From Vicinamibacterales bacterium (GTDB lineage Bacteria; Acidobacteriota; Vicinamibacteria; Vicinamibacterales; UBA2999), in contig CBDHFM010000030.1 in the NCBI GenBank assembly GCA_965262505.1, positions 2,528,088-2,592,087 of the forward strand: a DNA stretch of 64,000 bases, given 5' to 3'. This document shows, one piece after another, positions 27,710 through 62,928 of the stretch. Position 1 is the stretch's first letter; the number at the start of each line of letters is the position of its first letter. The notes under the pieces were generated by a model. The model was given only the letters and a program-made list of their open reading frames with translations, made no database searches and was not told the origin of the DNA. Made by a program: the position numbers and the translations under genes.

Positions 27710-28324
27710 GACGCGCGTGTCCCGTTACGCTTGCGCGCGGCCATAGCCGTGTGTTCCATTGACGCACAGGCTGCATCGGTCCACCGAGAGTTCGCGTAAA
27801 TCCAGGCACAGTTGGCACGCGGCAGCCTTACTTCCATGCGCACACATAGCCAGCCACTCCTTCGGATTTCCGTTTCGAAGGGGTTCGACGAATCATAGCC
27901 GTGACTGATCACGGACAGCCGTCGTGGCACCCGCATTAGCGAGGCTTTGACGTTCTGCAGCACCGCCTCGAGGATCGCGCCGTTGAATGGACGTGCGAAG
28001 TAGACCATGGTCGCGTCATCTGGGACGTCGTATGCGACGACATCATTGGTCACGACCTCGATGTCTTGGCACATCATCCGCTTGCGGGCCCGCTGGACGT
28101 TACGGCGCGCGATTTCATTGAGGGCGGTGGAACCTTCGACGCCGATCACTCGTGCGAAGGGATGCAAAGCCGCGATGATCACCGCTCGGCCTGTGCCTGA
28201 TCCGAAATCGACGAAGACGTCCCTACCGGGCTGGATGTCCAGCCCCTGCATAATTCTTCGAAGGTTGCCGTAAGCTGAGGGAGCGCAATTGGTGGGCTCG
28301 TTGTGGTCATATCCAAGCGCTTCC
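27706..28324 (-). pseudogene. Class I SAM-dependent methyltransferase, interrupted after codon ~5 by IS701-like copy A
   Basis: The open frame extends upstream of the listed Met to the IS junction (..EALGYDHNEPTNCAPSAYGNLRRIMQGLDIQPGRDVFVDFGSGTGRAV..). On the far side of the IS, 29770..29758 (minus strand) reads ATG GCA CCG CTT C. Through one CTAG this gives MAPLPREALGYDH.. in frame. Confidence 0.7.
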
Positions 28325-29757
28325 CTAGTACTACTTTGTCAGATTTGCAGTTTGACGTCTTTGAGCTTGAGCATCCACTTCAGGTAGTGCGGTTGCGTCA
28401 TGAAGAAATGGGCGGTCAGCACTTCCTGGATGATGGCGCGGACGCGCGGCAGCGTGAGATGTGTCTGTCCCCGTCGGCGGCGTTCCATCTGGAGAAAGCT
28501 GTAGGCGAGGGCGGTCAGCGCCACGTGACGTTGCCAGCCCGGCAGGCTGCGGCCTTCGAAGTGGTCGAGCCCAATCTCGTCCTTGAGCTCCTGGTATTGC
28601 TGCTCGATCGCCCAGCGCTGATGCGCGAGGCGCACGAGGCCGCGCAGCGCGGTGGTGGCGGGCAGATCGACCAAGTAGTACTTGGTGACAGGCGTTGCGC
28701 CGAGGTCGCGTTGACACAACAACCACACCTCGGGGGCGAGCCGTCGGCCCTCGCGCCAGTCGTGGGCGGGCGTGACCCGTACGGCACAGAAGCGGGCGCG
28801 CCACGGGGGATGCGTGCCGTTGCGCCACGACACGAGCCGCCACTGGCGAGGCGCTTGCGTGGCGGCCCAGGCCCGCGCTTCGACGGTCTGTGTACCGACC
28901 GGTAGGCCGTGCCGCGTGCGCGGACGGCCGCGGCCCGTCGGCGGCGGCGGCGTCTCGAGGGCCGGCGTTCCACGGAAGACCTTGAGATCGGACGACACCC
29001 CCAACGCGTAGGACAGTTTGGCCCGATGCAGCGTTCGCCGCAGCGTGGCGTTGTCGCCGAACTCGGCATCCCCCAACACGGCGGTCACCGTCACGCCCGC
29101 GGCGCGTACTTGTCGCAGCAGCGTGAGGGCCAATTGCCCCTTGGGCTGAAAGCGCACGCCGGCGGGAATGCGGGCGCGGGTCCGTTGGGCAGCGGTGAGC
29201 CACGTCTCCGGCAGATAGAGCTGCGCGCCCAGCATCCAGGCGCGCGTCCCCGTCCACAGGGCCACCGTGACGGCCGTTTGGCAGTTCGCGATTTTCCCGC
29301 GTGCCCCGCAGTATTGCCGCGCCACGCCGACCGACGCGGTCCCTTGCTTGGGAAAACTGGTGCCGTCGAGGATCAACACGCCGGTCCGCTCCGGGACCCG
29401 CGCCCGCAGCTGCTTCCACACCGTCTCGGCGTCCCACGGCGCATGCGTGATGAAGTGCTGGAACGCCTGATAGGTCCCGGGGTCGCTCAACCGCGCCCAC
29501 ATCGCCTCCATGGACTTGCGGCAACTGTCGTTGAGCAACCCGGCGACGTAGCGCCGCAACGCGCCGCGTTGACTGGCGCGCCCGAAGCCGGCCTCGAACG
29601 GCTCCAGCCAGGCCAGCAACCGACGGAGCCACGCGGTCGCGGTGTGATCGAGCACCGCACGGCAGCGTATCGAACTCGCGGAATTTGTACAATGCCCTCA
29701 AAAGTGATCGCTCTCGAATCCACTCGGCAATTCGTCAATCTGACAAAGTAGCACTAG
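28325..29757 (-). mobile_element. IS701-family insertion sequence, copy A (1433 bp including flanking CTAG)
   Basis: 20-bp terminal inverted repeat CTAGTACTACTTTGTCAGAT, with one mismatch in the right repeat of this copy. CTAG at both ends. Near-identical to copies B and C. Confidence 0.9.
28339..29655 (-). CDS. IS701-family DDE transposase
   Basis: 438 aa. RRYVAGLLNDSCRKSMEAMW, LILDGTSFPKQGTASVGVARQYCGARGKIANCQ and HQRWAIEQQYQELKDEIGLDHFEGRS are the IS701/DDE_5 pattern. Confidence 0.9.
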   Translation of the reverse strand: MLDHTATAWLRRLLAWLEPFEAGFGRASQRGALRRYVAGLLNDSCRKSMEAMWARLSDPGTYQAFQHFITHAPWDAETVWKQLRARVPERTGVLILDGTSFPKQGTASVGVARQYCGARGKIANCQTAVTVALWTGTRAWMLGAQLYLPETWLTAAQRTRARIPAGVRFQPKGQLALTLLRQVRAAGVTVTAVLGDAEFGDNATLRRTLHRAKLSYALGVSSDLKVFRGTPALETPPPPTGRGRPRTRHGLPVGTQTVEARAWAATQAPRQWRLVSWRNGTHPPWRARFCAVRVTPAHDWREGRRLAPEVWLLCQRDLGATPVTKYYLVDLPATTALRGLVRLAHQRWAIEQQYQELKDEIGLDHFEGRSLPGWQRHVALTALAYSFLQMERRRRGQTHLTLPRVRAIIQEVLTAHFFMTQPHYLKWMLKLKDVKLQI

Positions 29758-29776
29758 GAAGCGGTGCCATCACCCC

Positions 29777-30753: not shown

Positions 30754-32062
30754 TTAGGGCTTGTCAGACAATTACTGACTTTTGTGTTCTCGGAGCAGCG
30801 GGATGGATCGTGTAGTTCCAGTCGCCGTGAAAGCGATGCCGCTCGAGGCGTACCGTCGCCAGCTGCGCATCGGTGACGGTGAGGCCACCCGGGTATGGGC
30901 CGCGGTCGAGTTCCGACCGAACGCGGAGTCCGGACCGACTGTGCGTCGAGCCAATGAGGCTCACGATCGTGGCCAAGTCGACGAGTGGGGTGCCGCGCCA
31001 ATTCATCGCGATGTGCGAGAACACCCGATGCTCGATCTTGTTCCACTTGCTCGTACCCGGCGGAAAGTGACAGACCGTGATCACCAAGCCCGTCCGATTG
31101 GCCAGACGCGGCAGTTCCCACTTCCACAACCGGAGGCGCGCCCCGTTGCTCCCGCCTGCATCCGCCGTGATCAACAGCGACTGGGCTTGTCGATACGCCG
31201 GGCGACCCATGTGCTGCCACCAACGCTGGATCGACCGTACCGCGAAGCTCGCGGTGTCGTGATCGATCCCGACACGCACCCAGCCTTCGTTGCGATGCAG
31301 ATCGTAGATGCCATACGGAATGGCCTTCCCGCCCGTGGTGGCGGTGGCCGGGATCACGAAGTCGTGGACCTGTACCCGCTGCGGCGTCTTCGCCGGGCGC
31401 CAGGTGCGGCCCGCGTTCTTGAACGCGCCGACCAGCTCCTTCTTCTTGGTGTCCACCGAAATCGTCGGCTGCTGTTGCCGTTGCGCGCGTCGCACGCGCC
31501 GGGCGATGTACCGAAACTGCGCGTCCCGATCGACATGCTGGCGGCCTTCACGAGTCTTGGCGTTGCCCTGCAGGCTGTAGCCCAGTCCGTGCAACAACTC
31601 GGCGACCACCGTGTGGCTGACGCGGTGGCCCAGACCGTCGAGCGCCACCGCCAACGTCCGTGCGCTCTGGCACGTCCACCGCAGCGGCGAGTCGGGATCG
31701 CCGGGGGCGGTCGGCTCAACCAACGCATCCAAATCGCGCAGCAGCGTCGCGTCGAGATCGATCGCGCGCTTGCGGCCGCCGCCCGCCCTTCGCGTCCGGC
31801 CGCCCGCGAGCGGCTCGTCCGCCGTCAATTCACGCAAACCGCGCTGGATGGTCGATGTCGCGATACCCGTGGCTCGGGCGACCAGCGCCGTGCCGCCATA
31901 ACCGATCGCCTGGGCCTCAGTCGCCGCCCACACCCGGCGCGATCGCTCCGTGAGCACGGGCGCCAGCGCTGCATGCTTTGCCCGCAGGGTGGCCACCTCC
32001 ACGGGCGCAGCGTACTACTCGCCGATCAACAGTACAAGCAGTTATTTCCTTACATGCTCTTA
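30754..32062 (-). mobile_element. ISAzo13-family insertion sequence, copy 2 (1309 bp including flanking TTA)
   Basis: Collinear with copy 1 over its full length. I saw 5 nucleotide differences (copy-1 positions 18571, 18798, 19235, and two near 19727 and 19746). TTA at both junctions. Confidence 0.85.
30764..32002 (-). CDS. ISAzo13-family DDE transposase
   Basis: 412 aa. Differs from copy 1 by Q->P (ELPRLANR) and I->L (GGLTVTD). Confidence 0.9.
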   Translation of the reverse strand: MEVATLRAKHAALAPVLTERSRRVWAATEAQAIGYGGTALVARATGIATSTIQRGLRELTADEPLAGGRTRRAGGGRKRAIDLDATLLRDLDALVEPTAPGDPDSPLRWTCQSARTLAVALDGLGHRVSHTVVAELLHGLGYSLQGNAKTREGRQHVDRDAQFRYIARRVRRAQRQQQPTISVDTKKKELVGAFKNAGRTWRPAKTPQRVQVHDFVIPATATTGGKAIPYGIYDLHRNEGWVRVGIDHDTASFAVRSIQRWWQHMGRPAYRQAQSLLITADAGGSNGARLRLWKWELPRLANRTGLVITVCHFPPGTSKWNKIEHRVFSHIAMNWRGTPLVDLATIVSLIGSTHSRSGLRVRSELDRGPYPGGLTVTDAQLATVRLERHRFHGDWNYTIHPAAPRTQKSVIV

Positions 32063-35629: not shown

Positions 35630-35732
35630 ACCAGAATCCTTTCGCCGCGAATGCTGTGAATGGTAACGCTACCGGGTGCCCGCGTCTACCGATGCTCCCG
35701 ATGGGCGCCGCGACTTCGGGTCGCTCCCCTAG

Positions 35733-37199
35733 CAGCCCGTGGTTAAAGGTCGCCTTCTGACGCGCCAACAGGTAGCAGCTCGAAACGATGATTCGGCGTA
35801 AAAACGGACGCCTGATCGTCGGATGGCGTGTGGTGGTCGCGCCAGCGGCGCTCCACGCGCGTCCACAGCGCAATGACGAGCGCCACAATCGTCGCCAGGT
35901 GGCCCTGCAGGCTCCGCGGCGTGCCGACGCCGACGAGCGACCGCATCAAGAGGCCCAGATTGAAGCCGCCGATATGGACGAGTAAACGTTTCAGGATGTT
36001 GGTGTGCCCTCGCAGATGCGTGCGCCGCATCCCACCGGTTTCAGAGAGATGCGCATTCGGTCGTTCGAGATACTCACTCCGTCGACGCGACAAGGCCAAC
36101 CCACGCACGCCCCGGATGCGTCGACGATTCGCGTACACCGCGTCGCGCGCCGCCGCCTGGTGCGTCCAGTTGCGCCGGCCGCGATCGGGCTCCGCGATAG
36201 AGGTCCGCAGGTCGAGTGTCGCGAGATCCACCAGCGTCTGATTACTGTGGTATCCCTTGTCGGCCACGACCTCGTCGATGATCGCCGTGTGCCCGTCGGT
36301 CGCCACCGCCACGGCTTCGAGCTCTTCGGCCGTCGTGGTGACCGTCTCCGCGATCGTCGTCGTATCGCCCTGATCGGCGCCCTGCACCGTCACGCCCACG
36401 ATCGCCCCAGTCTCCAGGTCGACGGCGTGCTCAGCCTTGTGGGCCAGATGCGTACGCCCGTCCTTCATTTTCGTGATCCGCGCATCAGGGTCGTGTGGAT
36501 GCCGCCAGTCGGTATTGCAGCCCTTCTTCGGGCGCTTGCGATCAAGGCGCGCTAAGTCCGCCCGTGTCGGCGTCTCGATGCCCGAGGCCTGTGCGAGCCG
36601 CGTCAAGAACTCCTGATACGTCTCGCCGGAGTCGCGGCGCACGATGCTCCGCAAGGCGGCATTGGCTTCGAGGGTCGTGGCATCGATCCCGATCGTCTTG
36701 CCCTTCACGCGATCGGCCGTCGCCAGCACCTGCAGGATCCACGTGAAGACCGCCCGGTGCGTCTCGAGGTCGATCAGCCGCCGCGTCCGGGAGATCGTCG
36801 AGTGCTCGGGTGTCGCCTCATCGAGGCCCAACCCGAGAAAGCCGCGCAGCGCCAGCGAGTCGGCAGTCCGCCAGGCGATCCCACGCTCCGAATCGATGCC
36901 CTCGAAGTACCCGATCAAGAGCAGCCGGAAATAGGTCCCCGGCAGCAAACTGGGACGGCCGACCGTCGCGGCGTAGAACGGGGCGCACTGCGCCTCGACG
37001 CACGCGTCGAACGCGTGCGTGTCCAGGACCTGATTTAGCCGCTGATAGAACGGATGCCCGCCCGTGACCGGCAACGCGTTCGTCGCGATCCACAATCCGG
37101 GTGTCCGTGCCCGGTCCTTACGTCGACTCATGGCCATGCGGGAGTGTAGTACGCGGGATCAGTCGTGTCGATCCCTTTCGGCCCTTTAACCACAGGCTG
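35733..37199 (-). mobile_element. IS1182-like (IS5 superfamily) insertion sequence, type a, 1467 bp
   Basis: Terminal inverted repeats CAGCCCGTGGTTAAAGG (35733..) and the reverse complement of CCTTTAACCACAGGCTG (..37199). Flanked by CTAG at 35729-32 and 37200-03. Confidence 0.85.
35743..37137 (-). CDS. IS1182-like DDE transposase
   Basis: 464 aa. GHPFYQRLNQVLD, GRPSLLPGTYFRLLLIGYFEGIDSERGIAWR, IGIDATTLEANAALRSIVRRD and DKGYHSN blocks. Confidence 0.85.
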   Translation of the reverse strand: MAMSRRKDRARTPGLWIATNALPVTGGHPFYQRLNQVLDTHAFDACVEAQCAPFYAATVGRPSLLPGTYFRLLLIGYFEGIDSERGIAWRTADSLALRGFLGLGLDEATPEHSTISRTRRLIDLETHRAVFTWILQVLATADRVKGKTIGIDATTLEANAALRSIVRRDSGETYQEFLTRLAQASGIETPTRADLARLDRKRPKKGCNTDWRHPHDPDARITKMKDGRTHLAHKAEHAVDLETGAIVGVTVQGADQGDTTTIAETVTTTAEELEAVAVATDGHTAIIDEVVADKGYHSNQTLVDLATLDLRTSIAEPDRGRRNWTHQAAARDAVYANRRRIRGVRGLALSRRRSEYLERPNAHLSETGGMRRTHLRGHTNILKRLLVHIGGFNLGLLMRSLVGVGTPRSLQGHLATIVALVIALWTRVERRWRDHHTPSDDQASVFTPNHRFELLPVGASEGDL

Positions 37200-50760: not shown

Positions 50761-52974
50761 ATGGGAACCATGCTGCTCGACCGTCGCGCCTTCCTTCATG
50801 TGACCGCGCTCGCCGGCGGCGGGATGCTCGTCGCCGCCTATGTGGATCCGCTGACGGGCCTGCTCGCCCAGAGGCGGCGTGACCCTGGGACGTTCGTGCC
50901 GAACGCCTTCGTCAAGATCACGCCAGACAACGTCGTGACCATCATGTCGAAGAACCCCGAGATCGGGCAGGGGGTCAAGACCTCGCTGCCGATGCTGATT
51001 GCCGAGGAGCTCGAGGTGCCCTGGGATGACGTCCGGATCGAGCAGGCCGACCTCGATCCGACGAAGTACGGCCGGCAGAACGCCGGAGGAAGCACCGCCA
51101 CGCCCACCAACTACGAGCCGCTGCGCCGGGTCGGCGCGGCCGTCCGGCAGATGTTCGTGGCCGCCGGAGCGCAGTCGTGGAGCGTCCCGGTCGCCGAGTG
51201 CTACGCGGCCAGCGCGGCCGTGCATCACCGGCCGACGGGACGATCGATGACCTACGGGCAGCTTGCAGCCACCGCCGCCACACTCACGCCGCCAGACATG
51301 GCAACCGTGCCGCTCAAAGCGGCGGCGAACTTCACGATCATCGGCGAGCCCAAGGCCGGCGTCGACAACTTCGCCATCGTGACCGGCCAACCCACCTTCG
51401 GCATCGACTTCACGCTGCCCGGCATGTTGTGGGCGGTGTACGAGAAGTGCCCAGTGTACGGTGGCACGGTGGTCAACGCCAACCTGGACGAGGTCAGGGC
51501 GCTGCCGGGGGTCCGCCACGCGTTCGCGGTGCGGGGGACGACCGATACCCGGGGGCTGATGCCGGGCGTGGCCATCGTCGCCGACAGCTGGTGGCAGGCG
51601 CAGAGCGCGCGTCGCCGGCTGCAGGTGACCTGGAACGAGGGACCGACGGCGGAGCAGAGCAGCGAAGGCTTCGCCCGGCAGGCGCAGGCGCTCTCGACGG
51701 CGACCCCGTCGTTTCCGCTGCGCGTGACCGGCGACGTCGACCAGGCGCTCGAGGGCGCGGCCAGCGTCGTCGAGGCGGCGTACTCGTACCCCTTTATTTC
51801 GCACGCGCCGCTCGAGCCGCAAAACTGCACCGCGCACTACCGCGACGGCAGGATGGAGATTTGGGCGCCGACGCAAACGCCGCAGGGGGGGCGGCAGCTC
51901 GTCTCGACAGCCCTGGACATCCCGCAGGAGAACATCACGATTCATATCCAGCGGGCGGGCGGAGGCTTCGGCCGGCGGCTGACCAACGACTACATGGGGG
52001 AGGCGGCAGCCATCACCAAGGAGATCGGCGTTCCCGTCAAGGTGCTGTGGACGCGCGAGGACGACATGCGCCACGATCACTACCGGCCTGGAGGATTCCA
52101 TTTCCTCAAGGCCGGCGTGGACGGTTCGGGCAAGCTCATCGCGTGGCGTAACCACTTCGTGAGCTTTGGCGACAACGAGCGTGGCGCGCAGGGCTTCTCG
52201 AATTCCGCCAACATCAACGCCGTCGAGTTCCCGGCGCGGTTCGTGCCGAACTTCGACTTCCAGGCGACGCTCATGCCGCTTGGGGTACCGACGGGCGCTC
52301 TACGTGCCCCGCGCAGCAACGCCTTCTCGTGGGCGTTCCAGTCCTTCATCGACGAGCTGGCGCAGGCGGCCGGCAAGGATCCGATTCAGTTCCGGCTCGA
52401 TCTGCTCTCCGGTACCGAGATGGCGCAGCCGGAGCAGGGCGGCGACGGTTTCGACGCGTCGCGCATGCGCGGCGTGCTCGAGCTGATTCGCGAGAGGTCT
52501 GGATGGGGGACGCGGCGTCTGCCTGCGCGCACCGCGATGGGGGTGGCGTTCCAGTACAGCCACCGGGGGTACTTCGCGAACGTGGCCGAGGTCGCCGTGG
52601 ACGCGAACGATCGCGTGAAGATCGAGAGGGTGTGGGTGGTCGGGGACATCGGTCGCCAGATCGTCAACCCCAGTTCGGCGACCAGCGTTTCGCAGGGGGC
52701 CGTCATCGAAGGCATGAGCCACCTGATGAACTGGGAGATCACCTATTCGGGCGGCAAGGCCGTGCAGGGCAACTTCGACGTGTATCAGCCGACGCGAATG
52801 GCGCAGGCGCCGCCGATCGACGTGCACTTCCTGCTGACGGACAATCCGCCGACCGGGTTGGGGGAGCCGGCGCTCCCGCCGACGCTCGGCGCGATCAGCA
52901 ACGCGATCGCCGCCGCCTCCGGGAAGCGGATCCGTATGCTGCCGATCGCGAAGAGCGGCTTCCGGTGGGCGTGA
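50761..52974 (+). CDS. Molybdopterin-dependent oxidoreductase, IorB-like large subunit with Tat signal (second pair)
   Basis: [21 protein letters not shown] (twin-arginine motif). 737 aa; GGGFGRR and GLGEPALPP motifs. Confidence 0.85.
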
Positions 52975-53822
52975 GCGAACCGACACCAAGTTTTAACGGA
53001 CTCACTGTTCTCCTTCTCGAGAGCCGCCGCAGCCGCGAAATGGCGGCTCTCGTCTCCACCTACGGCGGCCGTCCGGTCGTCGCTCCCGCACTCCGCGAGG
53101 TTCCGCTCGAATCGAGTCCCGAGGCTCTCGTGTTCGCCGACGCCCTCGTGCGTGGCGAGTTCGACTGCGTCATCCTGCTGACCGGTGTCGGCACGCGCGC
53201 GCTCGTCGACGTCGTCGAGCGCGCGGGGTCCCGCGAGGCCTTCGTGGACGCCCTGGCGAAGACGAAGGTGGTGGCGCGCGGCCCCAAGCCGCTTGCGGTG
53301 CTTCGCGAGTTGAACGTCCCGGCGTGGGTGGCCGCGCCGGAGCCCAACACGTGGCGCGAGCTGCTGGCGGCCCTCGATGCCACCGGCACGTCGTTCGATG
53401 GACTGCGGGTCGCGGTCCAGGAGTACGGCGTGTCGAATCCCGATCTACTGCAGGGGCTGGAGACGCGCGGAGCCCGAGTGACGCGCGTCCCAGTGTACCG
53501 CTGGGCGCTGCCTGAGGATGTCGCGCCGTTGCGGTCGGCGGTCTCGTCCGTGGCGGGGGGTGAGATCGACATCGTCATCGTCACGACCGCCACGCAGGCC
53601 GTCCACCTGTTTCAGGTTGCGGAGACGATGGGCCAGGCGAACGCCGTTCGCGAGGGCCTTCGCCGAACGGTCGTCGCCTCGATCGGCCCAACCACGACCG
53701 AGGCGCTGAGGCACCAGGACGTCGCTGTCGATCTCGAAGCCTCCCGTCCCAAGATGGGCTTCCTCGTGCGGGAAGCCGCCGCGCGCAGCGGGGAGTTGCT
53801 GCAAGCGAAACGCGACGCGTAG
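52971..53822 (+). CDS. hemD: Uroporphyrinogen-III synthase
   Basis: The GTG at 52971 overlaps the upstream stop (GTGA). The two-lobed HemD pattern ([11 protein letters not shown].., [12 protein letters not shown]) is present. The listed ORF start 52329 overlaps the IorB-like gene. Confidence 0.65.
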
Positions 53823-53855
53823 TACTGATGTCATCACCTCGTCGCGGGTGGCGCC

Positions 53856-53874
53856 GGGCGGGGCCGCCCCGCCC
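53856..53874. terminator. GC-rich hairpin between convergent hemD and the ompA-family gene (possible bidirectional terminator)
   Basis: GGGCGGGG-CCG-CCCCGCCC: 8-bp perfect stem, 3-nt loop. No adjacent T-tract. Confidence 0.3.
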
Positions 53875-53968
53875 GCGCTGCAGGCGCCTCTCTCGTGACA
53901 GGTGTTTTTGGCGCCGAGGACGGGTGGGGCTGTCCGCGGACAGGACCCGTCCGGAGGTAATGAAACCG

Positions 53969-54765
53969 CTACTCGACGCGCACCAGTTCCACGCGGCGGT
54001 TCTGCTGCCGGCCCTGCTCGTCGGCGTTGTCGGCGACAGGCTGATCCGGGCCGAAGCCGCGTGGCACGAGCCGGTTCGCCTCCACGCCGTAGAGGCCCAG
54101 CGCCGCGGCCACCGATTGCGCCCGCTCGAGGGATAACTGGCGGTTGCGCTCGGCGGAGCCGGTCGAGTCGGTGTGGCCCTGGACCTCGATGCGCAAGCCC
54201 GGATTGGCCTTGAGCACCTCTGCCACGGTGTCGATCACCTCGCCGCTGCCCGGCCGCAGGTCCGCCCGATTGACGTCGAACAGGATGCCGTAGATGGCCA
54301 CCTTGCCGTCGCGGGTGAGGGCCTCGAACATGGCGACGGCGTCGAACTCAAGGCTCAGGTCGAGCCCGGCCTCGTCGACGATTTCGAGTTCATACGCGCC
54401 GTTCGCACGCGTGTCGAGGATGGCCCAGGTCGTGCCGCCCCCGCGGCTCACGATCCTAAAGCGCAGCCGTGTGCCGCTTCTGTCGAGGACCTCGCCGCCC
54501 ACGCGCTCCGCTTCGGCGGCGTAGTTGGCCATGATTTCGTCTCGACTCGTGTCGCGATTATCGAGCTGGTACTCGAGATGCCAGAACTTTCCCTCCGCCG
54601 TTTCGTCAATAGTCTTTCCGTCCAATCGGTACCGCACCAGCAGCTGGCCGAAGTCGTCGGCACGTGACGCGTCCTCGACCAGGGTGGCGCCATTCATGGG
54701 CTTGACGACCGGGTGCTCGGGCAACTCGTCCGGGGCGTCCTGCGCCGACGCCGGTGCCATCAGAC
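53969..54765 (-). pseudogene. OmpA-family protein (unknown N-terminal domain plus OmpA_C peptidoglycan-binding domain), body of the gene, severed from its signal peptide by an IS chain
   Basis: OmpA_C motifs FDVNRADLRPGS..IEVQGHTDSTGSAERNRQLSLERAQSV..NRRVELV. The listed ORF begins MAPASAQDAP, which is the end of a signal peptide. Confidence 0.8.
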
Positions 54766-56198
54766 CTAGTACTACTTTGTCAGATTTGCAGTTTGACGTC
54801 TTTGAGCTTGAGCATCCACTTCAGGTAGTGCGGTTGCGTCATGAAGAAATGGGCGGTCAGCACTTCCTGGATGATGGCGCGGACGCGCGGCAGCGTGAGA
54901 TGTGTCTGTCCCCGTCGGCGGCGTTCCATCTGGAGAAAGCTGTAGGCGAGGGCGGTCAGCGCCATGTGACGTTGCCAGCCCGGCAGGCTGCGGCCTTCGA
55001 AGTGGTCGAGCCCAATCTCGTCCTTGAGCTCCTGGTATTGCTGCTCGATCGCCCAGCGCTGATGCGCGAGGCGCACGAGGCCGCGCAGCGCGGTGGTGGC
55101 GGGCAGATCGACCAAGTAGTACTTGGTGACAGGCGTTGCGCCGAGGTCGCGTTGACACAACAACCACACCTCGGGGGCGAGCCGTCGGCCCTCGCGCCAG
55201 TCGTGGGCGGGCGTGACCCGTACGGCACAGAAGCGGGCGCGCCACGGGGGATGCGTGCCGTTGCGCCACGACACGAGCCGCCACTGGCGAGGCGCTTGCG
55301 TGGCGGCCCAGGCCCGCGCTTCGACGGTCTGTGTACCGACCGGTAGGCCGTGCCGCGTGCGCGGACGGCCGCGGCCCGTCGGCGGCGGCGGCGTCTCGAG
55401 GGCCGGCGTTCCACGGAAGACCTTGAGATCGGACGACACCCCCAACGCGTAGGACAGTTTGGCCCGATGCAGCGTTCGCCGCAGCGTGGCGTTGTCGCCG
55501 AACTCGGCATCCCCCAACACGGCGGTCACCGTCACGCCCGCGGCGCGTACTTGTCGCAGCAGCGTGAGGGCCAATTGCCCCTTGGGCTGAAAGCGCACGC
55601 CGGCGGGAATGCGGGCGCGGGTCCGTTGGGCAGCGGTGAGCCACGTCTCCGGCAGATAGAGCTGCGCGCCCAGCATCCAGGCGCGCGTCCCCGTCCACAG
55701 GGCCACCGTGACGGCCGTTTGGCAGTTCGCGATTTTCCCGCGTGCCCCGCAGTATTGCCGCGCCACGCCGACCGACGCGGTCCCTTGCTTGGGAAAACTG
55801 GTGCCGTCGAGGATCAACACGCCGGTCCGCTCCGGGACCCGCGCCCGCAGCTGCTTCCACACCGTCTCGGCGTCCCACGGCGCATGCGTGATGAAGTGCT
55901 GGAACGCCTGATAGGTCCCGGGGTCGCTCAACCGCGCCCACATCGCCTCCATGGACTTGCGGCAACTGTCGTTGAGCAACCCGGCGACGTAGCGCCGCAA
56001 CGCGCCGCGTTGACTGGCGCGCCCGAAGCCGGCCTCGAACGGCTCCAGCCAGGCCAGCAACCGACGGAGCCACGCGGTCGCGGTGTGATCGAGCACCGCA
56101 CGGCAGCGTATCGAACTCGCGGAATTTGTACAATGCCCTCAAAAGTGATCACTCTCGAATCCACTCGGCAATTCGTCAATCTGACAAAGTAGTACTAG
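54766..56198 (-). mobile_element. IS701-family insertion sequence, copy B (1433 bp including flanking CTAG)
   Basis: Perfect 20-bp terminal inverted repeats CTAGTACTACTTTGTCAGAT. Same orientation as copy A. Confidence 0.9.
54780..56096 (-). CDS. IS701-family DDE transposase
   Basis: 438 aa; one substitution versus copy A (V->M in GWQRHMAL). Confidence 0.9.
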   Translation of the reverse strand: MLDHTATAWLRRLLAWLEPFEAGFGRASQRGALRRYVAGLLNDSCRKSMEAMWARLSDPGTYQAFQHFITHAPWDAETVWKQLRARVPERTGVLILDGTSFPKQGTASVGVARQYCGARGKIANCQTAVTVALWTGTRAWMLGAQLYLPETWLTAAQRTRARIPAGVRFQPKGQLALTLLRQVRAAGVTVTAVLGDAEFGDNATLRRTLHRAKLSYALGVSSDLKVFRGTPALETPPPPTGRGRPRTRHGLPVGTQTVEARAWAATQAPRQWRLVSWRNGTHPPWRARFCAVRVTPAHDWREGRRLAPEVWLLCQRDLGATPVTKYYLVDLPATTALRGLVRLAHQRWAIEQQYQELKDEIGLDHFEGRSLPGWQRHMALTALAYSFLQMERRRRGQTHLTLPRVRAIIQEVLTAHFFMTQPHYLKWMLKLKDVKLQI

Positions 56199-57660
56199 CA
56201 GCCCGTGGTGAAAGTCGAGATTAGGGATCGACACGATCGATCCCGCGTACTACACTGCCGCGCATGGCCATGGGGAAACGCCGTCGCCGTGCGGGGCAGA
56301 AGACGATGTGGGTGGCGAGCGCCGATCTGCCGCAGAGCGCGGGGCACCCGTTTTACCAGCGACTGAATCGCGTTCTCGACGACGCGGGCTTTGACGCGTT
56401 CGTCGAGGCGCAGTGCGCCAAGTTCTATGCCGACGGGGTCGGCCGACCGAGCTTGGCGCCGGGCCGCTACTTCCGGCTGTTGCTGCTCGGCTACTTTGAA
56501 GGCCTGGACTCGGAGCGCGCGATCGCGTGGCGCGCCGCCGACTCGCTGAGCATCCGCCACTTTCTGGACTTCGAGCTGCACGAGGCGCCGCCGGACCATT
56601 CGACGCTGTCGCGCGCGCGGCGGTTGATCGATGTGGAGACGCACCAAGCAGTATTTACGTGGGTGCTGCAGCAGCTGGCCGACGCGCAGCTCGTGCTGGG
56701 GCGGACGCTCGGCATCGATGCGACGACGCTGGAGGCCAATGCGGCGATGCGGAGCATCGTGCGCCGGGACACGGGCAAGGAGTACGAGGCGTGGCTGACC
56801 CAGCTCGCCGAGGCGTCCGGGATCGCCACCCCGACCCGCGCCGAGCTGGCCCGGTTTGATCGGAAGCGCAAGAAGAAGGGGTCCAACGACGACTGGACGC
56901 ACCCGCAGGATCCGGACGCGAAGATCACGAAGCTGAAGGACGGGCGCACGCACCTCGCGCACAAAGCCGAGCACGCGGTGGACCTGGAGACGGGCGCGGT
57001 CGTCAGCGTCACGGTGCAGGACGCCGACGACGGGGACACGACGACGATGGTGGAGACCCTCATCACCGCCGCCGAACGACTCGCGGTGGTGGCCGACGCC
57101 GGCCTCGCCGAGATCGTGGGCGACAAGGGGTATCACAGCAATCAGACGCTGACCGAGTTTGTCGACATCGGGCTGCGCAGCTACATCTCGGAACCGGACC
57201 GCGGGCGCCGCAACTGGAAGGGGAAGGCCGACGCCCGAGCCGCCGTATATGCCAACCGGCGACGGATTCGGGGCGCCCGCGGGCAACGCCTGTTGCGGCA
57301 GCGCGGCGAACGGCTTGAACGTCCCAATGCCCATCTCTACGAAACCGGAGGAATGCGCCGGGTGCATCTGCGCGGACATCCCAACATCTTGAAACGCGTG
57401 TTGGTGCACGTCTGTGGGTTCAATCTCGGATTGCTCATGCGGCAGCTGACGGGGGTCGGTACGCCGCGGAGCCTCCAAGGCCGCGCGGCAGCCGTGCTGG
57501 AGGCCCTGACCGCTGCTCTCAGCCGCCTCTGGACTCTCGCAGCGCCTTCCTGGCCGCTCGATGCGCCAGACCGGCCGAATTCGTCGAGTATCGACGCTCG
57601 GACGCGGTGTCACGAACTCCTATCCATCGATTCGCGAATCGGTGCTTCTGCCACGGGCTG
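56199..57660 (+). mobile_element. IS1182-like insertion sequence, type b, 1462 bp
   Basis: Termini CAGCCCGTGG.. / ..CCACGGGCTG, the same 10-nt tips as type a. Abuts CTAG on both sides (56195-98, 57661-64). Confidence 0.85.
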
Positions 57661-57664
57661 CTAG
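56264..57664 (+). CDS. IS1182-like DDE transposase (about two-thirds identical to type a by eye)
   Basis: 466 aa with the same block structure as 35743..37137. The last sense codon and the TAG stop (57662-64) use bases of the flanking CTAG. Confidence 0.85.
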   Translation: MAMGKRRRRAGQKTMWVASADLPQSAGHPFYQRLNRVLDDAGFDAFVEAQCAKFYADGVGRPSLAPGRYFRLLLLGYFEGLDSERAIAWRAADSLSIRHFLDFELHEAPPDHSTLSRARRLIDVETHQAVFTWVLQQLADAQLVLGRTLGIDATTLEANAAMRSIVRRDTGKEYEAWLTQLAEASGIATPTRAELARFDRKRKKKGSNDDWTHPQDPDAKITKLKDGRTHLAHKAEHAVDLETGAVVSVTVQDADDGDTTTMVETLITAAERLAVVADAGLAEIVGDKGYHSNQTLTEFVDIGLRSYISEPDRGRRNWKGKADARAAVYANRRRIRGARGQRLLRQRGERLERPNAHLYETGGMRRVHLRGHPNILKRVLVHVCGFNLGLLMRQLTGVGTPRSLQGRAAAVLEALTAALSRLWTLAAPSWPLDAPDRPNSSSIDARTRCHELLSIDSRIGASATGC

Positions 57665-59093
57665 TACTACTTTGTCAGATTGACGAATTGCCGAGTGGAT
57701 TCGAGAGTGATCACTTTTGAGGGCATTGTACAAATTCCGCGAGTTCGATACGCTGCCGTGCGGTGCTCGATCACACCGCGACCGCGTGGCTCCGTCGGTT
57801 GCTGGCCTGGCTGGAGCCGTTCGAGGCCGGCTTCGGGCGCGCCAGTCAACGCGGCGCGTTGCGGCGCTACGTCGCCGGGTTGCTCAACGACAGTTGCCGC
57901 AAGTCCATGGAGGCGATGTGGGCGCGGTTGAGCGACCCCGGGACCTATCAGGCGTTCCAGCACTTCATCACGCATGCGCCGTGGGACGCCGAGACGGTGT
58001 GGAAGCAGCTGCGGGCGCGGGTCCCGGAGCGGACCGGCGTGTTGATCCTCGACGGCACCAGTTTTCCCAAGCAAGGGACCGCGTCGGTCGGCGTGGCGCG
58101 GCAATACTGCGGGGCACGCGGGAAAATCGCGAACTGCCAAACGGCCGTCACGGTGGCCCTGTGGACGGGGACGCGCGCCTGGATGCTGGGCGCGCAGCTC
58201 TATCTGCCGGAGACGTGGCTCACCGCTGCCCAACGGACCCGCGCCCGCATTCCCGCCGGCGTGCGCTTTCAGCCCAAGGGGCAATTGGCCCTCACGCTGC
58301 TGCGACAAGTACGCGCCGCGGGCGTGACGGTGACCGCCGTGTTGGGGGATGCCGAGTTCGGCGACAACGCCACGCGGCGGCGAACGCTGCATCGGGCCAA
58401 ACTGTCCTACGCGTTGGGGGTGTCGTCCGATCTCAAGGTCTTCCGTGGAACGCCGGCCCTCGAGACGCCGCCGCCGCCGACGGGCCGCGGCCGTCCGCGC
58501 ACGCGGCACGGCCTACCGGTCGGTACACAGACCGTCGAAGCGCGGGCCTGGGCCGCCACGCAAGCGCCTCGCCAGTGGCGGCTCGTGTCGTGGCGCAACG
58601 GCACGCATCCCCCGTGGCGCGCCCGCTTCTGTGCCGTACGGGTCACGCCCGCCCACGACTGGCGCGAGGGCCGACGGCTCGCCCCCGAGGTGTGGTTGTT
58701 GTGTCAACGCGACCTCGGCGCAACGCCTGTCACCAAGTACTACTTGGTCGATCTGCCCGCCACCACCGCGCTGCGCGGCCTCGTGCGCCTCGCGCATCAG
58801 CGCTGGGCGATCGAGCAGCAATACCAGGAGCTCAAGGACGAGATTGGGCTCGACCACTTCGAAGGCCGCAGCCTGCCGGGCTGGCAACGTCACATGGCGC
58901 TGACCGCCCTCGCCTACAGCTTTCTCCAGATGGAACGCCGCCGACGGGGACAGACACATCTCACGCTGCCGCGCGTCCGCGCCATCATCCAGGAAGTGCT
59001 GACCGCCCATTTCTTCATGACGCAACCGCACTACCTGAAGTGGATGCTCAAGCTCAAAGACGTCAAACTGCAAATCTGACAAAGTAGTACTAG
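57661..59093 (+). mobile_element. IS701-family insertion sequence, copy C (inverted relative to A and B)
   Basis: Perfect 20-bp terminal repeats. The terminal CTAG at 59090-93 is shared with the IS630-like junction. Confidence 0.9.
57763..59079 (+). CDS. IS701-family DDE transposase
   Basis: 438 aa; L->R (DNATRRRT) relative to copies A and B. Confidence 0.9.
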   Translation: MLDHTATAWLRRLLAWLEPFEAGFGRASQRGALRRYVAGLLNDSCRKSMEAMWARLSDPGTYQAFQHFITHAPWDAETVWKQLRARVPERTGVLILDGTSFPKQGTASVGVARQYCGARGKIANCQTAVTVALWTGTRAWMLGAQLYLPETWLTAAQRTRARIPAGVRFQPKGQLALTLLRQVRAAGVTVTAVLGDAEFGDNATRRRTLHRAKLSYALGVSSDLKVFRGTPALETPPPPTGRGRPRTRHGLPVGTQTVEARAWAATQAPRQWRLVSWRNGTHPPWRARFCAVRVTPAHDWREGRRLAPEVWLLCQRDLGATPVTKYYLVDLPATTALRGLVRLAHQRWAIEQQYQELKDEIGLDHFEGRSLPGWQRHMALTALAYSFLQMERRRRGQTHLTLPRVRAIIQEVLTAHFFMTQPHYLKWMLKLKDVKLQI

Positions 59094-60558
59094 TACCTCG
59101 CCGCAGTGGATCTGACCGGTTCACGCGGCGGCTTTGGCCCGACCAGCGGGTTGCGGATACACACGGCCGAGCTTTTCGCGAGCACGGTCGACTGTAAACA
59201 TCCAGTGGATGCGCGCCTTCTCGTCATTGCGCCGTTGCTCCCATGCCGCGATCTCCTTGATGAGGATCGCCTTGGCAGGGATCCGACGATCGAGGCACTG
59301 CTTGACCATCACGCCGATTTCGATCTCGACCATGTTGAGCCAGCTGGCGTGTTTCGGCGTGAAGTGAAACTCGAGCCGACGGAGAATCCGTCGTGCCTCG
59401 GCGGGATCGAAGGCGTGGTAGAGCGCTGCCGCTGAATGTGCCGAAAGATTGTCGAGCACCACACGGATCCGTTCGGCCTCCGGGTAGTGCTCATCGACGA
59501 GATCGCGCATGCACTCTGCGAAGTCGACGCACGTGCGTTGGTCGGTGACCTTGGCATGTCGCCAGGAGCGATTCACGTCTACGAACATGAAGACATTCGC
59601 CGTGCCGTTGCGCACGTACTCGTAGTCGACTCGTCTGGGCTTCCCGGGCTTGGCCCGAATCGGGACACGCGCTTCGCCGATCAGTTGCCGGGGTGTTTCA
59701 TCGAAGCCGACGACCGGTCGCCGCGGATCCGGCGGCTCGGCGTAGAGATCGAGGACGTCTTCCATTCGCGCCACGTACTCGGCGTTGACCGTCGGAATGC
59801 ACCACATCTTCTCCTGCCACGGCTTCAGCGCCATCTCGGCAAGCCGGCGACCCACCGTGTCGCCCGACAGGGCCTCGTGCGAGGTGAGTCGCACCATCTC
59901 GCGGGCCAGGAGATCCAGTGTCCATCGCGCACGCCCGGAGGGTGGATGTGAGCAAGCGACCGCGACCAGGAGGGCTTCATCGCTGGCGCCGAGCTTGCGC
60001 GGCGCGCCGGGACGGGGCACTTCGCGGAGCGCTCGGTCCAGTCCTTCCTCGACGAAGCGTTGCTTGGTCCGGTACACGGTCGACGTGCCGACACCAACGT
60101 TGAGCGCGATCATCTCGTCGGTGGATGTGGCGTCCGCGGCGAGGAGAATCTGCGCCCGCTTGATCTTGCGAACCGCCCCCTGGCCGCCGCTCACAAGCGC
60201 CTGAAGCTGTTGCTGTTCATCGTAGGTCAGCGTGATGCGATAGCGTATGTGCATGGACATCTTGGATCACCTTCCCGATCCCGTGTCCAGCCGTTCATCA
60301 CCGAGATTCACCCAGAAGCAGGGCCAGTACCTAGCCTTCCTCTACACGTACACGCTCCTTCACCGAACGCCACCGGCCGAAGCGGACTTCCAACGGTTCT
60401 TTCAGGTCACGCCCCCGGCCGTCCACCACATGACCGTCGAGCTTGAGCGGCGCGGTCTGATCAGTCGGGTTCCACGCCAACCCCGGACGATCAAGCTGTT
60501 GTTGTCGGCAGAGGAACTACCCTCGTTGCAACCGATCAAAACCACTGCGGCAAGGTAC
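59093..60558 (-). mobile_element. IS630-family-like insertion sequence carrying a passenger ORF, 1466 bp
   Basis: 17-bp terminal inverted repeats: GTACCTCGCCGCAGTGG (59093-59109) and the reverse complement of CCACTGCGGCAAGGTAC (60542-60558), one mismatch. TA at 59091-92 and 60559-60. The outer bases C and G recreate a CTAG target. Confidence 0.8.
59121..60260 (-). CDS. IS630-family DDE transposase
   Basis: 379 aa. N-terminal HTH (GVGTSTVYRTKQRF), then FDETPRQL, VLDNLSAHS and TPKHASWLNMVEIE, a DDE/D pattern typical of IS630/Tc1-like enzymes. Confidence 0.85.
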   Translation of the reverse strand: MSMHIRYRITLTYDEQQQLQALVSGGQGAVRKIKRAQILLAADATSTDEMIALNVGVGTSTVYRTKQRFVEEGLDRALREVPRPGAPRKLGASDEALLVAVACSHPPSGRARWTLDLLAREMVRLTSHEALSGDTVGRRLAEMALKPWQEKMWCIPTVNAEYVARMEDVLDLYAEPPDPRRPVVGFDETPRQLIGEARVPIRAKPGKPRRVDYEYVRNGTANVFMFVDVNRSWRHAKVTDQRTCVDFAECMRDLVDEHYPEAERIRVVLDNLSAHSAAALYHAFDPAEARRILRRLEFHFTPKHASWLNMVEIEIGVMVKQCLDRRIPAKAILIKEIAAWEQRRNDEKARIHWMFTVDRAREKLGRVYPQPAGRAKAAA

Positions 60559-60561
60559 TAG
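60253..60561 (+). CDS. Small winged-helix protein resembling the LexA N-terminal DNA-binding domain, passenger ORF of the IS630-like element
   Basis: FTQKQGQYLAFLYTYTLLHRTPPAEADFQRFFQVTPPAVHHMTVELERRGLISRVPRQPRTIKLL follows the LexA-DBD pattern (LTxRQ..L.FI....G.PP...EI......S...V..HL..LE.KG.I.R....R.I.L). Possible starts at 60247 or 60253. The stop TAG at 60559-61 lies outside the IS. Confidence 0.5.
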   Translation: MDILDHLPDPVSSRSSPRFTQKQGQYLAFLYTYTLLHRTPPAEADFQRFFQVTPPAVHHMTVELERRGLISRVPRQPRTIKLLLSAEELPSLQPIKTTAARY

Positions 60562-60615
60562 GGCCAGCATGCCGGCGGCCAATGTGGAGAACGCGACGCG
60601 GTAATAACGAATCAT
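60562..60615 (-). pseudogene. OmpA-family protein, displaced 5' end (18 codons of signal peptide)
   Basis: Minus strand: ATG ATT CGT TAT TAC CGC GTC GCG TTC TCC ACA TTG GCC GCC GGC ATG CTG GCC = MIRYYRVAFSTLAAGMLA. The ATG overlaps the stop of the upstream gene (ATGA). Confidence 0.75.
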
Positions 60616-61436
60616 TGAAGGCTCCCATCGGGGTTGAAGATCTCGCCAATCGTTAGAGTTGTCTCACGGCGATAGGTCTGCCCCAGGACCCGGCCGCCGA
60701 CATCACTCACCGCCGTGAGGACGTCGGTCTGCTGATCGTATTCGAGCGTCATGGTCAGCTTACCGATGGACATGCTCGCGCAGTTGTTGCACGTGACGTC
60801 GACGTCGGCGCCCGGGCACCGGATGGCGATTGGCACCATGTCGGTGCGGAAGTTCGCCCGCAGCGTGAACGGCCCGACCGGCTGGGACGGTGAGCCGCCG
60901 CTGCTTTGCACGTAGATGTCCGAGCGCACGGCGCCGCTGAACACCGCGGACTCCCGGCAGGGCGTCACCCCGAGTCCGGCTGGCAGCGGCGGCAGGGACA
61001 AGCCGCAGGTGGGGGCGGCGGCCGCGCCCTCGATGCAGAACTTCTCGGTGAGCCACTCCTCCTGCGCCATGACGCCTGCGACCGTGGCATCCGACTCGAA
61101 CACGGCAGCCGGGAGGATCTGGAGCCTCTTGCCGGCCACGTTGCCGATGAGCGCGTTCGTGCCGAACTGGATCTGCTGGCTCACCAGTATCCAGGTGCCG
61201 AGCAGTTCCGAGAGGTCGGGGACGACGCAGGGGCCAAGGCCGCCGAAGTCGCTGTCATAGAGATAACCGAGATCCCAGCCCATCGAGATCGCGGTGAAGG
61301 CCACACCCGGCGAGCAGGTGGCACTCGATAGCACTCCTTCGTATGGGTTCTGGCCGGCCTGTGCTGGCCGCACCGATCCCAGCGCGAGTACGCTCACCAC
61401 GACGGCAACCCCAAGCGCGCGCAAACGGACTGTCAT
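60612..61436 (-). CDS. Secreted cysteine-containing protein of unknown function
   Basis: 274 aa. Signal peptide MTVRLRALGVAVVVSVLALGSVRPAQA/GQ; 8 Cys in the mature part; no motif recognised. Confidence 0.65.
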   Translation of the reverse strand: MTVRLRALGVAVVVSVLALGSVRPAQAGQNPYEGVLSSATCSPGVAFTAISMGWDLGYLYDSDFGGLGPCVVPDLSELLGTWILVSQQIQFGTNALIGNVAGKRLQILPAAVFESDATVAGVMAQEEWLTEKFCIEGAAAAPTCGLSLPPLPAGLGVTPCRESAVFSGAVRSDIYVQSSGGSPSQPVGPFTLRANFRTDMVPIAIRCPGADVDVTCNNCASMSIGKLTMTLEYDQQTDVLTAVSDVGGRVLGQTYRRETTLTIGEIFNPDGSLQ

Positions 61437-61593
61437 CGGTATCTCCTCGTGGCGCGCGGGAAGCGGTGTGCTCCACGCAGCGGCCGCCTGAGATTGCCTG
61501 AAAACCAGGCGACGGTCAAGAATAGCGAGGCGCCGCGTCGATGCTGCGGTCCCGGTAGCCGGGGCTTACGCCCCGCCGACGTAAGATCGTCTG

Positions 61594-61944
61594 ATGCCGA
61601 CTTCAGAAGAACTCATCGAGCTGGCCAACGAGTGCGCGTCGAAGCTGGAGCTCGACGGCACACTCAGGCACGTGCCGTCCTTCTCGGACACCGAAGAGCA
61701 GTGCGAGGCGGAATACGAGGAGCTGCTACAGGCGATCCACGAGGACGATCTGTTCGCGACCGTCGACATCCAGCGGCAGGAGGAGCTCGTGGAGCTGATC
61801 GCGGCGGCGCTGCCGGAGGACACGCGCATGCTGATCGTCGAGCTCGCCGATAATCACGCCCGCCACGTCTGGATGCAGCAGGAGGGGGCCTACCACCTCG
61901 GCCTCGCCGTGGGCCGGAGGCTGCGGCTGCGGCGAGAGAACTGA
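61594..61944 (+). CDS. Acidic hypothetical protein
   Basis: 116 aa, Glu/Asp-rich, no motif recognised. GC-rich third-position codon usage is like the neighbouring genes. Confidence 0.45.
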   Translation: MPTSEELIELANECASKLELDGTLRHVPSFSDTEEQCEAEYEELLQAIHEDDLFATVDIQRQEELVELIAAALPEDTRMLIVELADNHARHVWMQQEGAYHLGLAVGRRLRLRREN

Positions 61945-61980
61945 AGCAAATCCCAAATCCCGAACTCCAAGTCCCAACCG

Positions 61981-62928
61981 GTGTCCCTTTCGTTCCTGCA
62001 TTACGACGTCTTCACACAGGAGCCGCTGGCCGGTAACCAGCTTGCGGTGTTCGTTGATGCCCGAGGCCTCGCCGCCGACCGCATGCAGGCGCTCGCGCTC
62101 GAGATGAACTTCTCGGAGAGCACGTTCATCCTGCCGTCCGAGACGGCCGGTACCGACGTCCGGATGCGGATCTTCACGCCCGCTACGGAAATGCCGATGG
62201 CGGGGCACCCGACGATCGGCAGTACGTTCGCGCTGGCCCACACCGGGCTGATACGGCCGGGCCTGCCTCGCTTCGTGTTCGGATTGGGTGTCGGCCCGAC
62301 GCCTGTCGATCTCGAGTGGGAGGGAGAGCGGCTGCGGTTTGCGTGGATGACGCAGCTCAATCCGACGTTCGGGCCAGAGCTGCTCGGGCCAGAGCTGCTC
62401 GGGGCAGCGCTGCCCGGACCGTCGCTGGACGCGCGCGCGGCGGCGGCCGCCGCGATAGGCCTTGGCGCACCGGACCTTGCCCCAGAACTTCCCGTGCAGC
62501 AGGTGTCGTGCGGCGTGCCCTACCTGATCGTGCCGCTCCGCAGCCCGGAGGCCGTGGACAAGGCGGCGAGCGACGCGGCTGCCCTCCGCCGGCTCGCGGC
62601 GTCGACCGCGATCGACCTGCCGGTCTTCCTCTTCGCCATGTTGCCGAGTGGTTCGGCCGGCACGGTCTACAGCCGCATGTTCGCCCCGGCGCTCGACGTC
62701 ACCGAGGACCCTGCGACCGGCAGCGCCAGCGGGCCGCTCGGTTGCTACCTCGTTCGTCATCGTCTCGTCTCTGGCGATGCCGCGCTGCGCATCATCAGTG
62801 TGCAGGGGGTGGCGATGGGTCGCCCGAGCCGTATCCACGTCTCGATCGCCTCGCGGTCAGACGAGATTGTGGAGGTCAAGGTCGGAGGCCAGGCCGTGCT
62901 CGTCGGCCGCGGCGAGTTGCTGGTCTGA
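61981..62928 (+). CDS. PhzF-family isomerase-like protein
   Basis: GNQLAVFVD, MNFSESTFILP, RIFTPATEMPMAGHPTIGS and the second-half pattern DPATGSASGPLGCYL. Confidence 0.8.
   Translation: MSLSFLHYDVFTQEPLAGNQLAVFVDARGLAADRMQALALEMNFSESTFILPSETAGTDVRMRIFTPATEMPMAGHPTIGSTFALAHTGLIRPGLPRFVFGLGVGPTPVDLEWEGERLRFAWMTQLNPTFGPELLGPELLGAALPGPSLDARAAAAAAIGLGAPDLAPELPVQQVSCGVPYLIVPLRSPEAVDKAASDAAALRRLAASTAIDLPVFLFAMLPSGSAGTVYSRMFAPALDVTEDPATGSASGPLGCYLVRHRLVSGDAALRIISVQGVAMGRPSRIHVSIASRSDEIVEVKVGGQAVLVGRGELLV
62371..62400. repeat. In-frame 15-bp tandem duplication inside the PhzF-like gene
   Basis: GGGCCAGAGCTGCTC x2 (encodes GPELLGPELL), followed by a degenerate third copy GGGGCAGCGCTGCCC (62401-62415). 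Confidence 0.8.

Follow-up and report, generated by a model that had tools for sequence, protein, structure and literature searches.

Four insertion sequences from three families chained at a single CTAG of an OmpA-family gene in a Vicinamibacterales genome

The convergence of several families of insertion sequences (ISs) on the target CTAG and the clustering of ISs in genomes are both established. IS630 duplicates 2 bp (TA) within CTAG, as stated in a passage of PMC2577343 that cites Tenzen and Ohtsubo (1991), IS701 makes repeats of 4-5 bp according to a section of PMC8024623 citing Siguier (2015), and the duplications made by IS5 and its derivatives consist of CTAG or YTAA (PMC10379815, PMC3189936). 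For seven mobile elements, CTAG target motifs also emerged from a survey of pathogens (bioRxiv 10.1101/527788). With regard to clustering, 19% of ISs were found in clusters in a prokaryotic survey, and the model presented there holds that each IS adds sites for the insertion and survival of others (PMC13548323). Here, we describe a chain of four adjoining ISs within an OmpA-family gene, located in a stretch of 64,000 nucleotides (the window) from a Vicinamibacterales bacterium (GenBank assembly GCA_965262505.1, contig CBDHFM010000030.1, positions 2,528,088 to 2,592,087). Like the clusters of PMC13548323, the chain brings together neighbours of different families; in our case, the added site is known at base level, namely a regenerated CTAG on either side, and the elements abut exactly, whereas those of the surveyed clusters lie within 2.5 kb of each other.

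The region 53800-60800 was read directly, every CTAG of the 64-kb window was listed, and the elements were read off between the sites. CTAGs at positions 54766, 56195, 57661, 59090 and 60558 delimit four adjoining ISs. The same five coordinates had been given in a first-pass annotation, which a model made from the sequence alone, and all of them were reproduced by the direct reading and the CTAG listing. The chain is composed as follows, with the separating and distal CTAGs taken from the listing.

54770-56194, minus strand: IS701-family copy B, 1425 bp, with TACTACTTTGTCAGAT at both ends and a transposase at 54780-56096
56195-56198: CTAG separating IS701 copy B from the IS1182-like element b
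56199-57660, plus strand: IS5/IS1182-like element b, 1462 bp, with ends CAGCCCGTGG and CCACGGGCTG and a transposase open reading frame (ORF) at 56264-57664
57661-57664: CTAG separating element b from IS701 copy C
57665-59089, plus strand: IS701-family copy C, 1425 bp, with the same ends as B and a transposase at 57763-59079
59090-59093: CTAG separating IS701 copy C from the IS630 element
59094-60557, minus strand: IS630-family element, 1464 bp, with ends TACCTCGCCGCAGTGG and TACCTTGCCGCAGTGG and a transposase at 59121-60260
59093-60558: the same IS630 element under the usual IS630 reading, with the duplicated TA as flanks
60558-60561: CTAG at the distal end of the chain

Copy C is inverted with respect to copy B and differs from it by 1 nt, and the 17-bp terminal repeats of the IS701 elements are perfect. 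Their 16-mer end occurs six times in the window, compared to 0.00 times in shuffled sequences, and nine of the window's 28 CTAGs are flanks of IS ends. An Rfam search of 52000-62500 returned no match. The chain divides an OmpA-family gene into two parts.

53969-54769, minus strand: 3' part of the OmpA-family gene, 267 codons, containing the native CTAG at 54766-54769 (codons CTA GGT, Leu-Gly)
60562-60615, minus strand: 5' part of the OmpA-family gene, 18 codons, MIRYYRVAFSTLAAGMLA, with a 4-nt overlap between its start and the stop of the gene of 274 amino acids (aa) that lies upstream

When 54770-60561 is removed, the minus-strand segments 60615..60562 and 54769..53969 become adjacent and form a 284-aa ORF beginning MIRYYRVAFSTLAAGMLALGLMAPASAQDAPDEL, with one CTAG left. 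This ORF is in frame only if the CTAG at 54766-54769 is retained. The first-pass annotation had quoted the rejoined protein, and its sequence was exactly reproduced; the end of the join was given as 54765, which is wrong, as 54769 is needed to keep the CTAG. The truncated ORF by itself matches PF00691 (OmpA) at residues 160-255 with 78.7 bits, compared to a Pfam cutoff of 27.2. A protein search returned many homologues of exactly 284 aa with 87-92% identity to the restored ORF and 100% length coverage. Alignment with these full-length homologues is collinear and gapless across the junction, and the earlier view that the whole chain occupies one original CTAG is borne out. The restored N-terminus contains basic residues, a hydrophobic stretch and ASA/QD and is a putative signal peptide. 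The cleavage-like pattern A-x-A/F-A-Q-D is kept in the aligned homologues. The gene order of 274-aa gene, OmpA and HEM4 is common to the loci L112, L113 and L195, and so is the 4-nt start overlap. Since relatives carry CTG-GGG or CTG-GGT at the insertion site and the window carries CTA-GGT, the CTAG of this lineage is the product of a synonymous change in a leucine codon.

With four elements, five CTAGs and one of these native, each element brought exactly one CTAG, and the motif is therefore not simply contained in both inverted repeats. A layout in which CTAG forms part of the inverted repeats and no duplication occurs was considered and rejected, as it is at odds with four elements per five CTAGs and with a reading frame that needs exactly one.

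The closest OmpA homologue (L195, 92% identity) contains approximately 200 bp of unrelated DNA (4004-4207) just past the start codon, at the position of the window's codons 2-4, and its gene was called with a 66-aa N-terminal extension. The extra DNA may represent a further small insertion within this region of the gene.

We consider it probable (about 0.8) that the chain arose by successive insertion of CTAG-preferring ISs at one regenerated native CTAG in a dead OmpA-family gene. Through the synonymous leucine codon (CTA followed by GGT), a CTAG would have arisen where the gene encodes its signal peptide, and a first IS, encoding a DDE transposase with CTAG preference, would have entered this site. 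The staggered cut and its repair would then duplicate CTAG, or its central TA, and thereby leave a CTAG on either side of the element. Subsequently, IS701, IS5/IS1182-like and IS630 elements could have entered the flanking CTAGs one by one, resulting in four elements in a row with single CTAGs between them. With the signal peptide cut off and the gene already inactive, later insertions would have been costless and would have been retained. In this scheme, the anatomy of the chain, its single native CTAG, the CTAG preference of the relatives, the recurring junctions and the further assemblies with the chain are observations, and we infer how many events took place and in which order, how long the duplicated site was and what relaxed selection contributed.

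The target preference was followed in independent copies of all three IS types. A metagenome scan with transposase b gave 80 loci of IS1182-like relatives with 66-88% identity, in which CTAG was present at 121 of 135 ends; 50 of the 62 complete copies showed it on both sides, with unrelated DNA beyond. The IS630-like set consisted of two close relatives, each examined on up to ten contigs, and CTAG made up 21 of their 22 distinct flanks, which agrees with the C-TA-G flanks observed here and with the CTAG target that the first-pass annotation had ascribed to IS630. In viral contigs, a scan for relatives of the IS630 element produced two poor loci and nothing else. For the IS701-like set, genome contigs (596 Gb) were scanned with the 16-mer, and the resulting 111 loci, mostly chance matches, were kept if a transposase match lay adjacent. 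Beside such matches, 15 of 21 ends carried CTAG and 19 of 21 carried YTAR. These flank counts of our own support the YTAR preference stated for IS701 in the first-pass annotation, for which a statement in the literature was sought and not found. With CTAG at most of the relatives' flanks in all three types, the refuting outcome named in the first-pass annotation, further copies with no CTAG at their junctions, was not observed, and the proposed convergence of unrelated IS families on a shared CTAG is supported.

Single-CTAG junctions between ISs were found elsewhere as well. Eight of the 135 IS1182-like ends (6%) meet another CTAG-specific element across one CTAG: five times an IS701-like element, once an IS630-like element, and in one IS1182-IS1182 junction that is counted from both sides. 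The metagenome contigs with IS ends meeting in this way are L119, L126, L128, L144, L149, L158 and L184. In genome contigs, two of 32 CTAG-flanked IS701-like ends meet an IS1182-like end, one in a metagenome-assembled genome (MAG) of Vicinamibacteraceae (L045) and the other in L083. As these junctions recur in unrelated loci, CTAG chains are a regular by-product of these elements.

Among the IS1182-like copies, four loci (L141, L145, L162 and L183) contain a full copy that is preceded, at a distance of approximately 33 bp, by a second CTAG-flanked left end. The CTAG-flanked stretch of approximately 29 bp directly beside the full copy in these loci looks like a remnant consisting of repeats alone, apparently both terminal repeats of the IS1182-like element in fused form, e.g. 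CAGGCCGTGGTGAAAG...ACGGCCTG in L145.

With regard to the length of the target duplication, CTAG-X-CTAG and C-TA-(G-X-C)-TA-G are the same string, and the palindrome fits a 4-bp and a TA duplication alike for all three elements. Short IS701-like derivatives with equal, non-palindromic 4-bp flanks, CTAA in L008 and ATAG in L030, favour 4 bp. Full-length IS701-like copies with unequal flanks occur in MAG contigs (L010, L013 and L102) and may be due to chimeric assembly or later mutation. A plasmid-borne IS1182-like copy of 54% identity (L218) is flanked by TGTA on both sides, which is a clear 4-bp repeat. The non-CTAG cases among the IS1182-like copies comprise eight unequal pairs (TTAG/CTAG, CTAG/CTAA, CTAG/TTAG and CTAA/CTAG) and no equal pair. 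A TA duplication with G...C as element ends fits five of these eight pairs, and a 4-bp CTAG duplication with single transitions fits all eight; for the unequal IS1182-like flanks, later transitions and a TA duplication are equally good explanations.

The family labels of the first-pass annotation were compared with curated NCBIfam models and held for two of the three types. The IS701 transposase matches NF033540 with 349.1 bits (cutoff 150) and PF13546 (DDE_5) with 213.7 bits, and the IS630 transposase matches NF033545 with 223.1 bits (cutoff 100) and contains DDE_3, HTH_32 and HTH_29 domains. The label IS1182 was not sustained in full, as the IS1182 model NF033551 is the best match of the third type and yet remains below its cutoff of 270 bits, with 163.3 bits for b and 152.6 bits for the related element a, described below. 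The next-best model is IS5_4 with 83 bits (cutoff 140). Transposase b, with 466 aa, matches PF05598 (DUF772) with 65.7 bits and PF01609 (DDE_Tnp_1) with 26.9 bits, and weakly PF13751 (18.5 bits, cutoff 25.1). Because of the sub-cutoff IS1182 match, the IS5 models in second place and the make-up of DUF772 and DDE_Tnp_1, the third element is, judging from its sequence, best described as IS5/IS1182-like. An exact-protein look-up of the two IS701 transposases returned no record; nonetheless, the same ORFs were called in related contigs.

The IS701 family, with its prototype IS701 from Calothrix and 4-bp direct repeats, resembles the copies described here in its DDE_5 transposase and CTAG/YTAR flanks. 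Its members measure approximately 1.4-1.55 kb, and the window's element, with 1425 bp and perfect 17-bp terminal repeats, falls within this range. Compared to ISGka1 and ISGka2 of Geobacillus, which produce repeats of 4-9 bp without a consensus (PMC8024623), its preference for CTAG is much tighter. The IS630 element shares a DDE_3 transposase, an N-terminal helix-turn-helix and the CTAG target with IS630 of Shigella sonnei and the IS630/Tc1/mariner group. Elements of the IS630 family typically have 1000-1400 bp, so that the window's element is somewhat larger with its 1464 bp, the surplus being a divergent 104-aa winged-helix ORF located between one element end and the start of the transposase. 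Element b has the architecture of DUF772 and DDE_Tnp_1 and the CTAG on both sides in common with IS5 (CTAG/YTAR, 4-bp duplication) and IS1182, and differs from both families by scoring below the cutoffs of both sets of curated models. The 466 aa of its transposase lie within the approximately 450-550 aa of the IS1182 family.

The chain, or part of it, was also present in the assemblies of other metagenome samples, although none of the retrieved records is identical to the window.

L194 / L220, ERZ25069191: contig of 1.05 Mb, 99.8% identity to the window, full chain
L219, ERZ25068966: contig of 79 kb, 99.9% identity, full chain and an additional rve-type transposase upstream
L221, ERZ25071132: contig of 952 kb, 99.99% identity, stopping inside element b

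Since three other metagenome assemblies carry the chain at 99.8-99.99% identity, one of them in part, it does not appear to be a misassembly. A collapse or mis-joining of IS repeats could be suspected, as 1.4-kb repeats with 99.7-99.9% identity are present, L221 terminates within the chain, and the differences between assemblies lie mostly within IS copies. However, the complete chain with the same junctions was found in the 1.05-Mb and 79-kb contigs of different samples, one of which has a different upstream neighbour, and excision of the chain yields a perfect ORF; the chance that it is an artefact is close to nil. The use of a long-read assembler is suggested by contig names such as ctgN_16x_l. 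L194 differs from the window at seven single bases, six of which fall within IS copies and may result from conversion between copies or from an imperfect repeat consensus. Strains with only part of the chain were not encountered among the related contigs retrieved.

Two further differences between these contigs were observed around the locus. Between the window and L194, there is a 15-bp indel at window positions 62389-62403, by which a short tandem repeat (GPELL) in a PhzF-family gene differs in copy number. Upstream of the 274-aa gene, L219 (ERZ25068966) carries a transposase of the rve type (IS3/IS481-like) at positions 1-1241, and the window has other genes beyond 61441; this upstream transposase shows that ISs are still active near the chain.

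The window contains further ISs outside the chain.

28329-29753, minus strand: IS701-family copy A, solitary, differing from B by 3 nt, with CTAG at 28325 and 29754
35733-37199, minus strand: IS5/IS1182-like element a, 1467 bp, approximately 70% identical to b and with the same ends, with CTAG at 35729 and 37200
18442-19750 and 30754-32062: two direct copies of an ISAzo13-family element, 1309 bp, 99.6% identical, 548 bits (cutoff 200)

The pairs 28325/29754 and 35729/37200 had been reported as further CTAG insertions, and both are present. These two solitary insertions look intergenic. In contrast to the families of the chain, the ISAzo13-family copies are flanked by TTA and not by CTAG. The target of copy A lies within a hairpin-like GCTTCC-CTA-GGAAGC (window 28315-29770), and an IS1182-like copy in L181 occupies a comparable palindromic setting, CCAGGGGG-CTAG-TCCCCTGG.

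To describe the availability of targets, tetramers were counted in 55.3 kb of the window with the IS elements masked, in a genome of 65% G+C. CTAG was seen 21 times, compared to 177 expected from base composition and 39 expected from a Markov model. Its observed/expected ratio of 0.12 is the lowest of the 256 tetramers, CTAA, TAGG and TTAG being the next rarest (0.14-0.17), and the Markov ratio is 0.54. The scarcity of CTAG is real, and much of it is a general avoidance of TA, TAG and CTA. The scarce CTAG sites of the first-pass annotation are thus indeed the rarest tetramer in the masked window, with the qualification that their scarcity is largely compositional. Chain formation was then simulated with six insertions, each at a random CTAG among those present and with 21 native sites at the start. 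A chain of at least four elements resulted in 2.1% of runs (0.021), for a window that was itself picked because of its chain.

Several points weigh against successive insertion as the full account of the locus. The consensus within IS repeats may be slightly unreliable, given that most of the base differences sit there. Furthermore, because the random-CTAG model yields a chain in only about 2% of runs, target regeneration alone is probably not the whole story (P about 0.02), and a probable contribution comes from the neutrality of a gene that is already dead and/or from local hopping. The target regeneration put forward in the first-pass annotation therefore holds in that a CTAG stands on each side and the junctions recur, and falls short in that it alone gives the chain so rarely; the composite origin of B-b-C, which had been deemed dispensable, is kept as a rival.

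The low probability of the target-only model also suits a view in which survival rather than target choice is decisive, so that insertions occur at many CTAGs and are kept only where they are harmless, the broken gene being a 'safe haven'. The apparently intergenic position of the two solitary CTAG insertions is in line with this, and so are the IS load of the 64-kb window, with eight copies of five types, and the 19% of clustered ISs in the survey, in whose model each IS adds survivable sites (PMC13548323). Survival alone, however, would leave later insertions scattered in or near the resident elements and not each exactly at a flanking CTAG, and it complements the target explanation without replacing it. 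As the deciding factor, it is a possibility that we place below even odds.

In addition, no element of the chain is nested in another, so that its structure does not reveal the order of the insertions, and a composite transposon, or a replicative hop within the molecule, would likewise give near-identical, inverted copies B and C around b. In a local replicative hop, an IS701 element beside b would have transposed intramolecularly into the CTAG across b and inverted the segment; the chain would still occupy one CTAG, and one of the four 'insertions' would be a local duplication with inversion. Copies B and C lie in opposite orientations, exactly flank b and differ by 1 nt, compared to 3 nt between A and B, and replicative transposition was reported for the IS701-family elements ISGka1 and ISGka2 (PMC8024623). 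However, the signature of an inverted duplication is masked by the palindromic CTAG, two independent IS701 insertions give the same sequence, and single IS701-like ends in public data adjoin IS1182-like ends one-sidedly only, which makes such a hop unlikely.

In the case of a composite transposon, the inverted IS701 pair would have moved b as a block into the CTAG, and the IS630 element would have arrived separately. The near-identical inverted IS701 copies on either side of b are compatible with this, and the outer ends share the 17-bp terminal repeat and CTAG flanks. The inner flanks of B-b-C are CTAG as well as the outer ones, a pattern common to a composite and a stepwise origin. However, in an analysis that covered the window and ±10 kb of related contigs, no second B-b-C block was seen within the window, IS701-like ends on both sides were found in none of the 80 metagenome loci of IS1182-like relatives, and the cargo would merely be another IS, leaving the block without a selective advantage. 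A composite transposon is thus very unlikely, and successive insertion at one regenerated CTAG remains our preferred explanation.

The flanking CTAG also enters the coding sequences of the elements. The transposase ORF of b (56264-57664) has no stop of its own, crosses the right terminal repeat and terminates with the TAG contained in the flanking CTAG. In 47 of the 80 metagenome relatives of b (L114-L193), the transposase likewise lacks its own stop and ends at the flanking TAG. Unlike b, copy a has an earlier stop in its transposase. A second ORF of this kind lies in the IS630 element.

60247-60561, plus strand: 104-aa ORF within the IS630 element, in divergent orientation to the transposase, the two starts overlapping by 14 nt and the flanking TAG being its stop

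The product of this ORF shows a weak match to a winged helix of the LexA/MarR type (PF01726, 22.9 bits), just below the cutoff of 23.7. The ORF was called in ten of ten copies of one relative, shows approximately 80% identity in L207, and has a broken frame in another relative. It may encode a regulator that travels with the IS630 element.

The chain is ordinary in kind, as it consists of new members of known families that behave as expected. The novelty is limited to three unnamed IS types from an uncultured soil lineage, for which named homologues suggest Vicinamibacterales within Acidobacteriota, a CTAG preference that is very strict among the IS5/IS1182-like relatives, and a clean four-element chain. 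These are useful for IS annotation and for work on site-specific transposases, and they open no new question. In a wider reading that we hold to be distinctly unlikely, soil Acidobacteriota-like genomes would harbour at least three unrelated transposase families as a 'guild' that shares a 4-base target and forms self-seeding arrays. If this were true, a single synonymous change to CTA-G would make a gene an insertion magnet, selection against landing pads would add to the rarity of CTAG beyond codon and dinucleotide bias, and the flanking TAG as an ORF stop would be an adaptation to a fixed target. The locus itself illustrates IS clustering at base level, as a target that is duplicated becomes available anew on either side and a dead gene can take further hits without cost, and it provides a concrete sequence basis for the idea of PMC13548323 that ISs add insertion sites.

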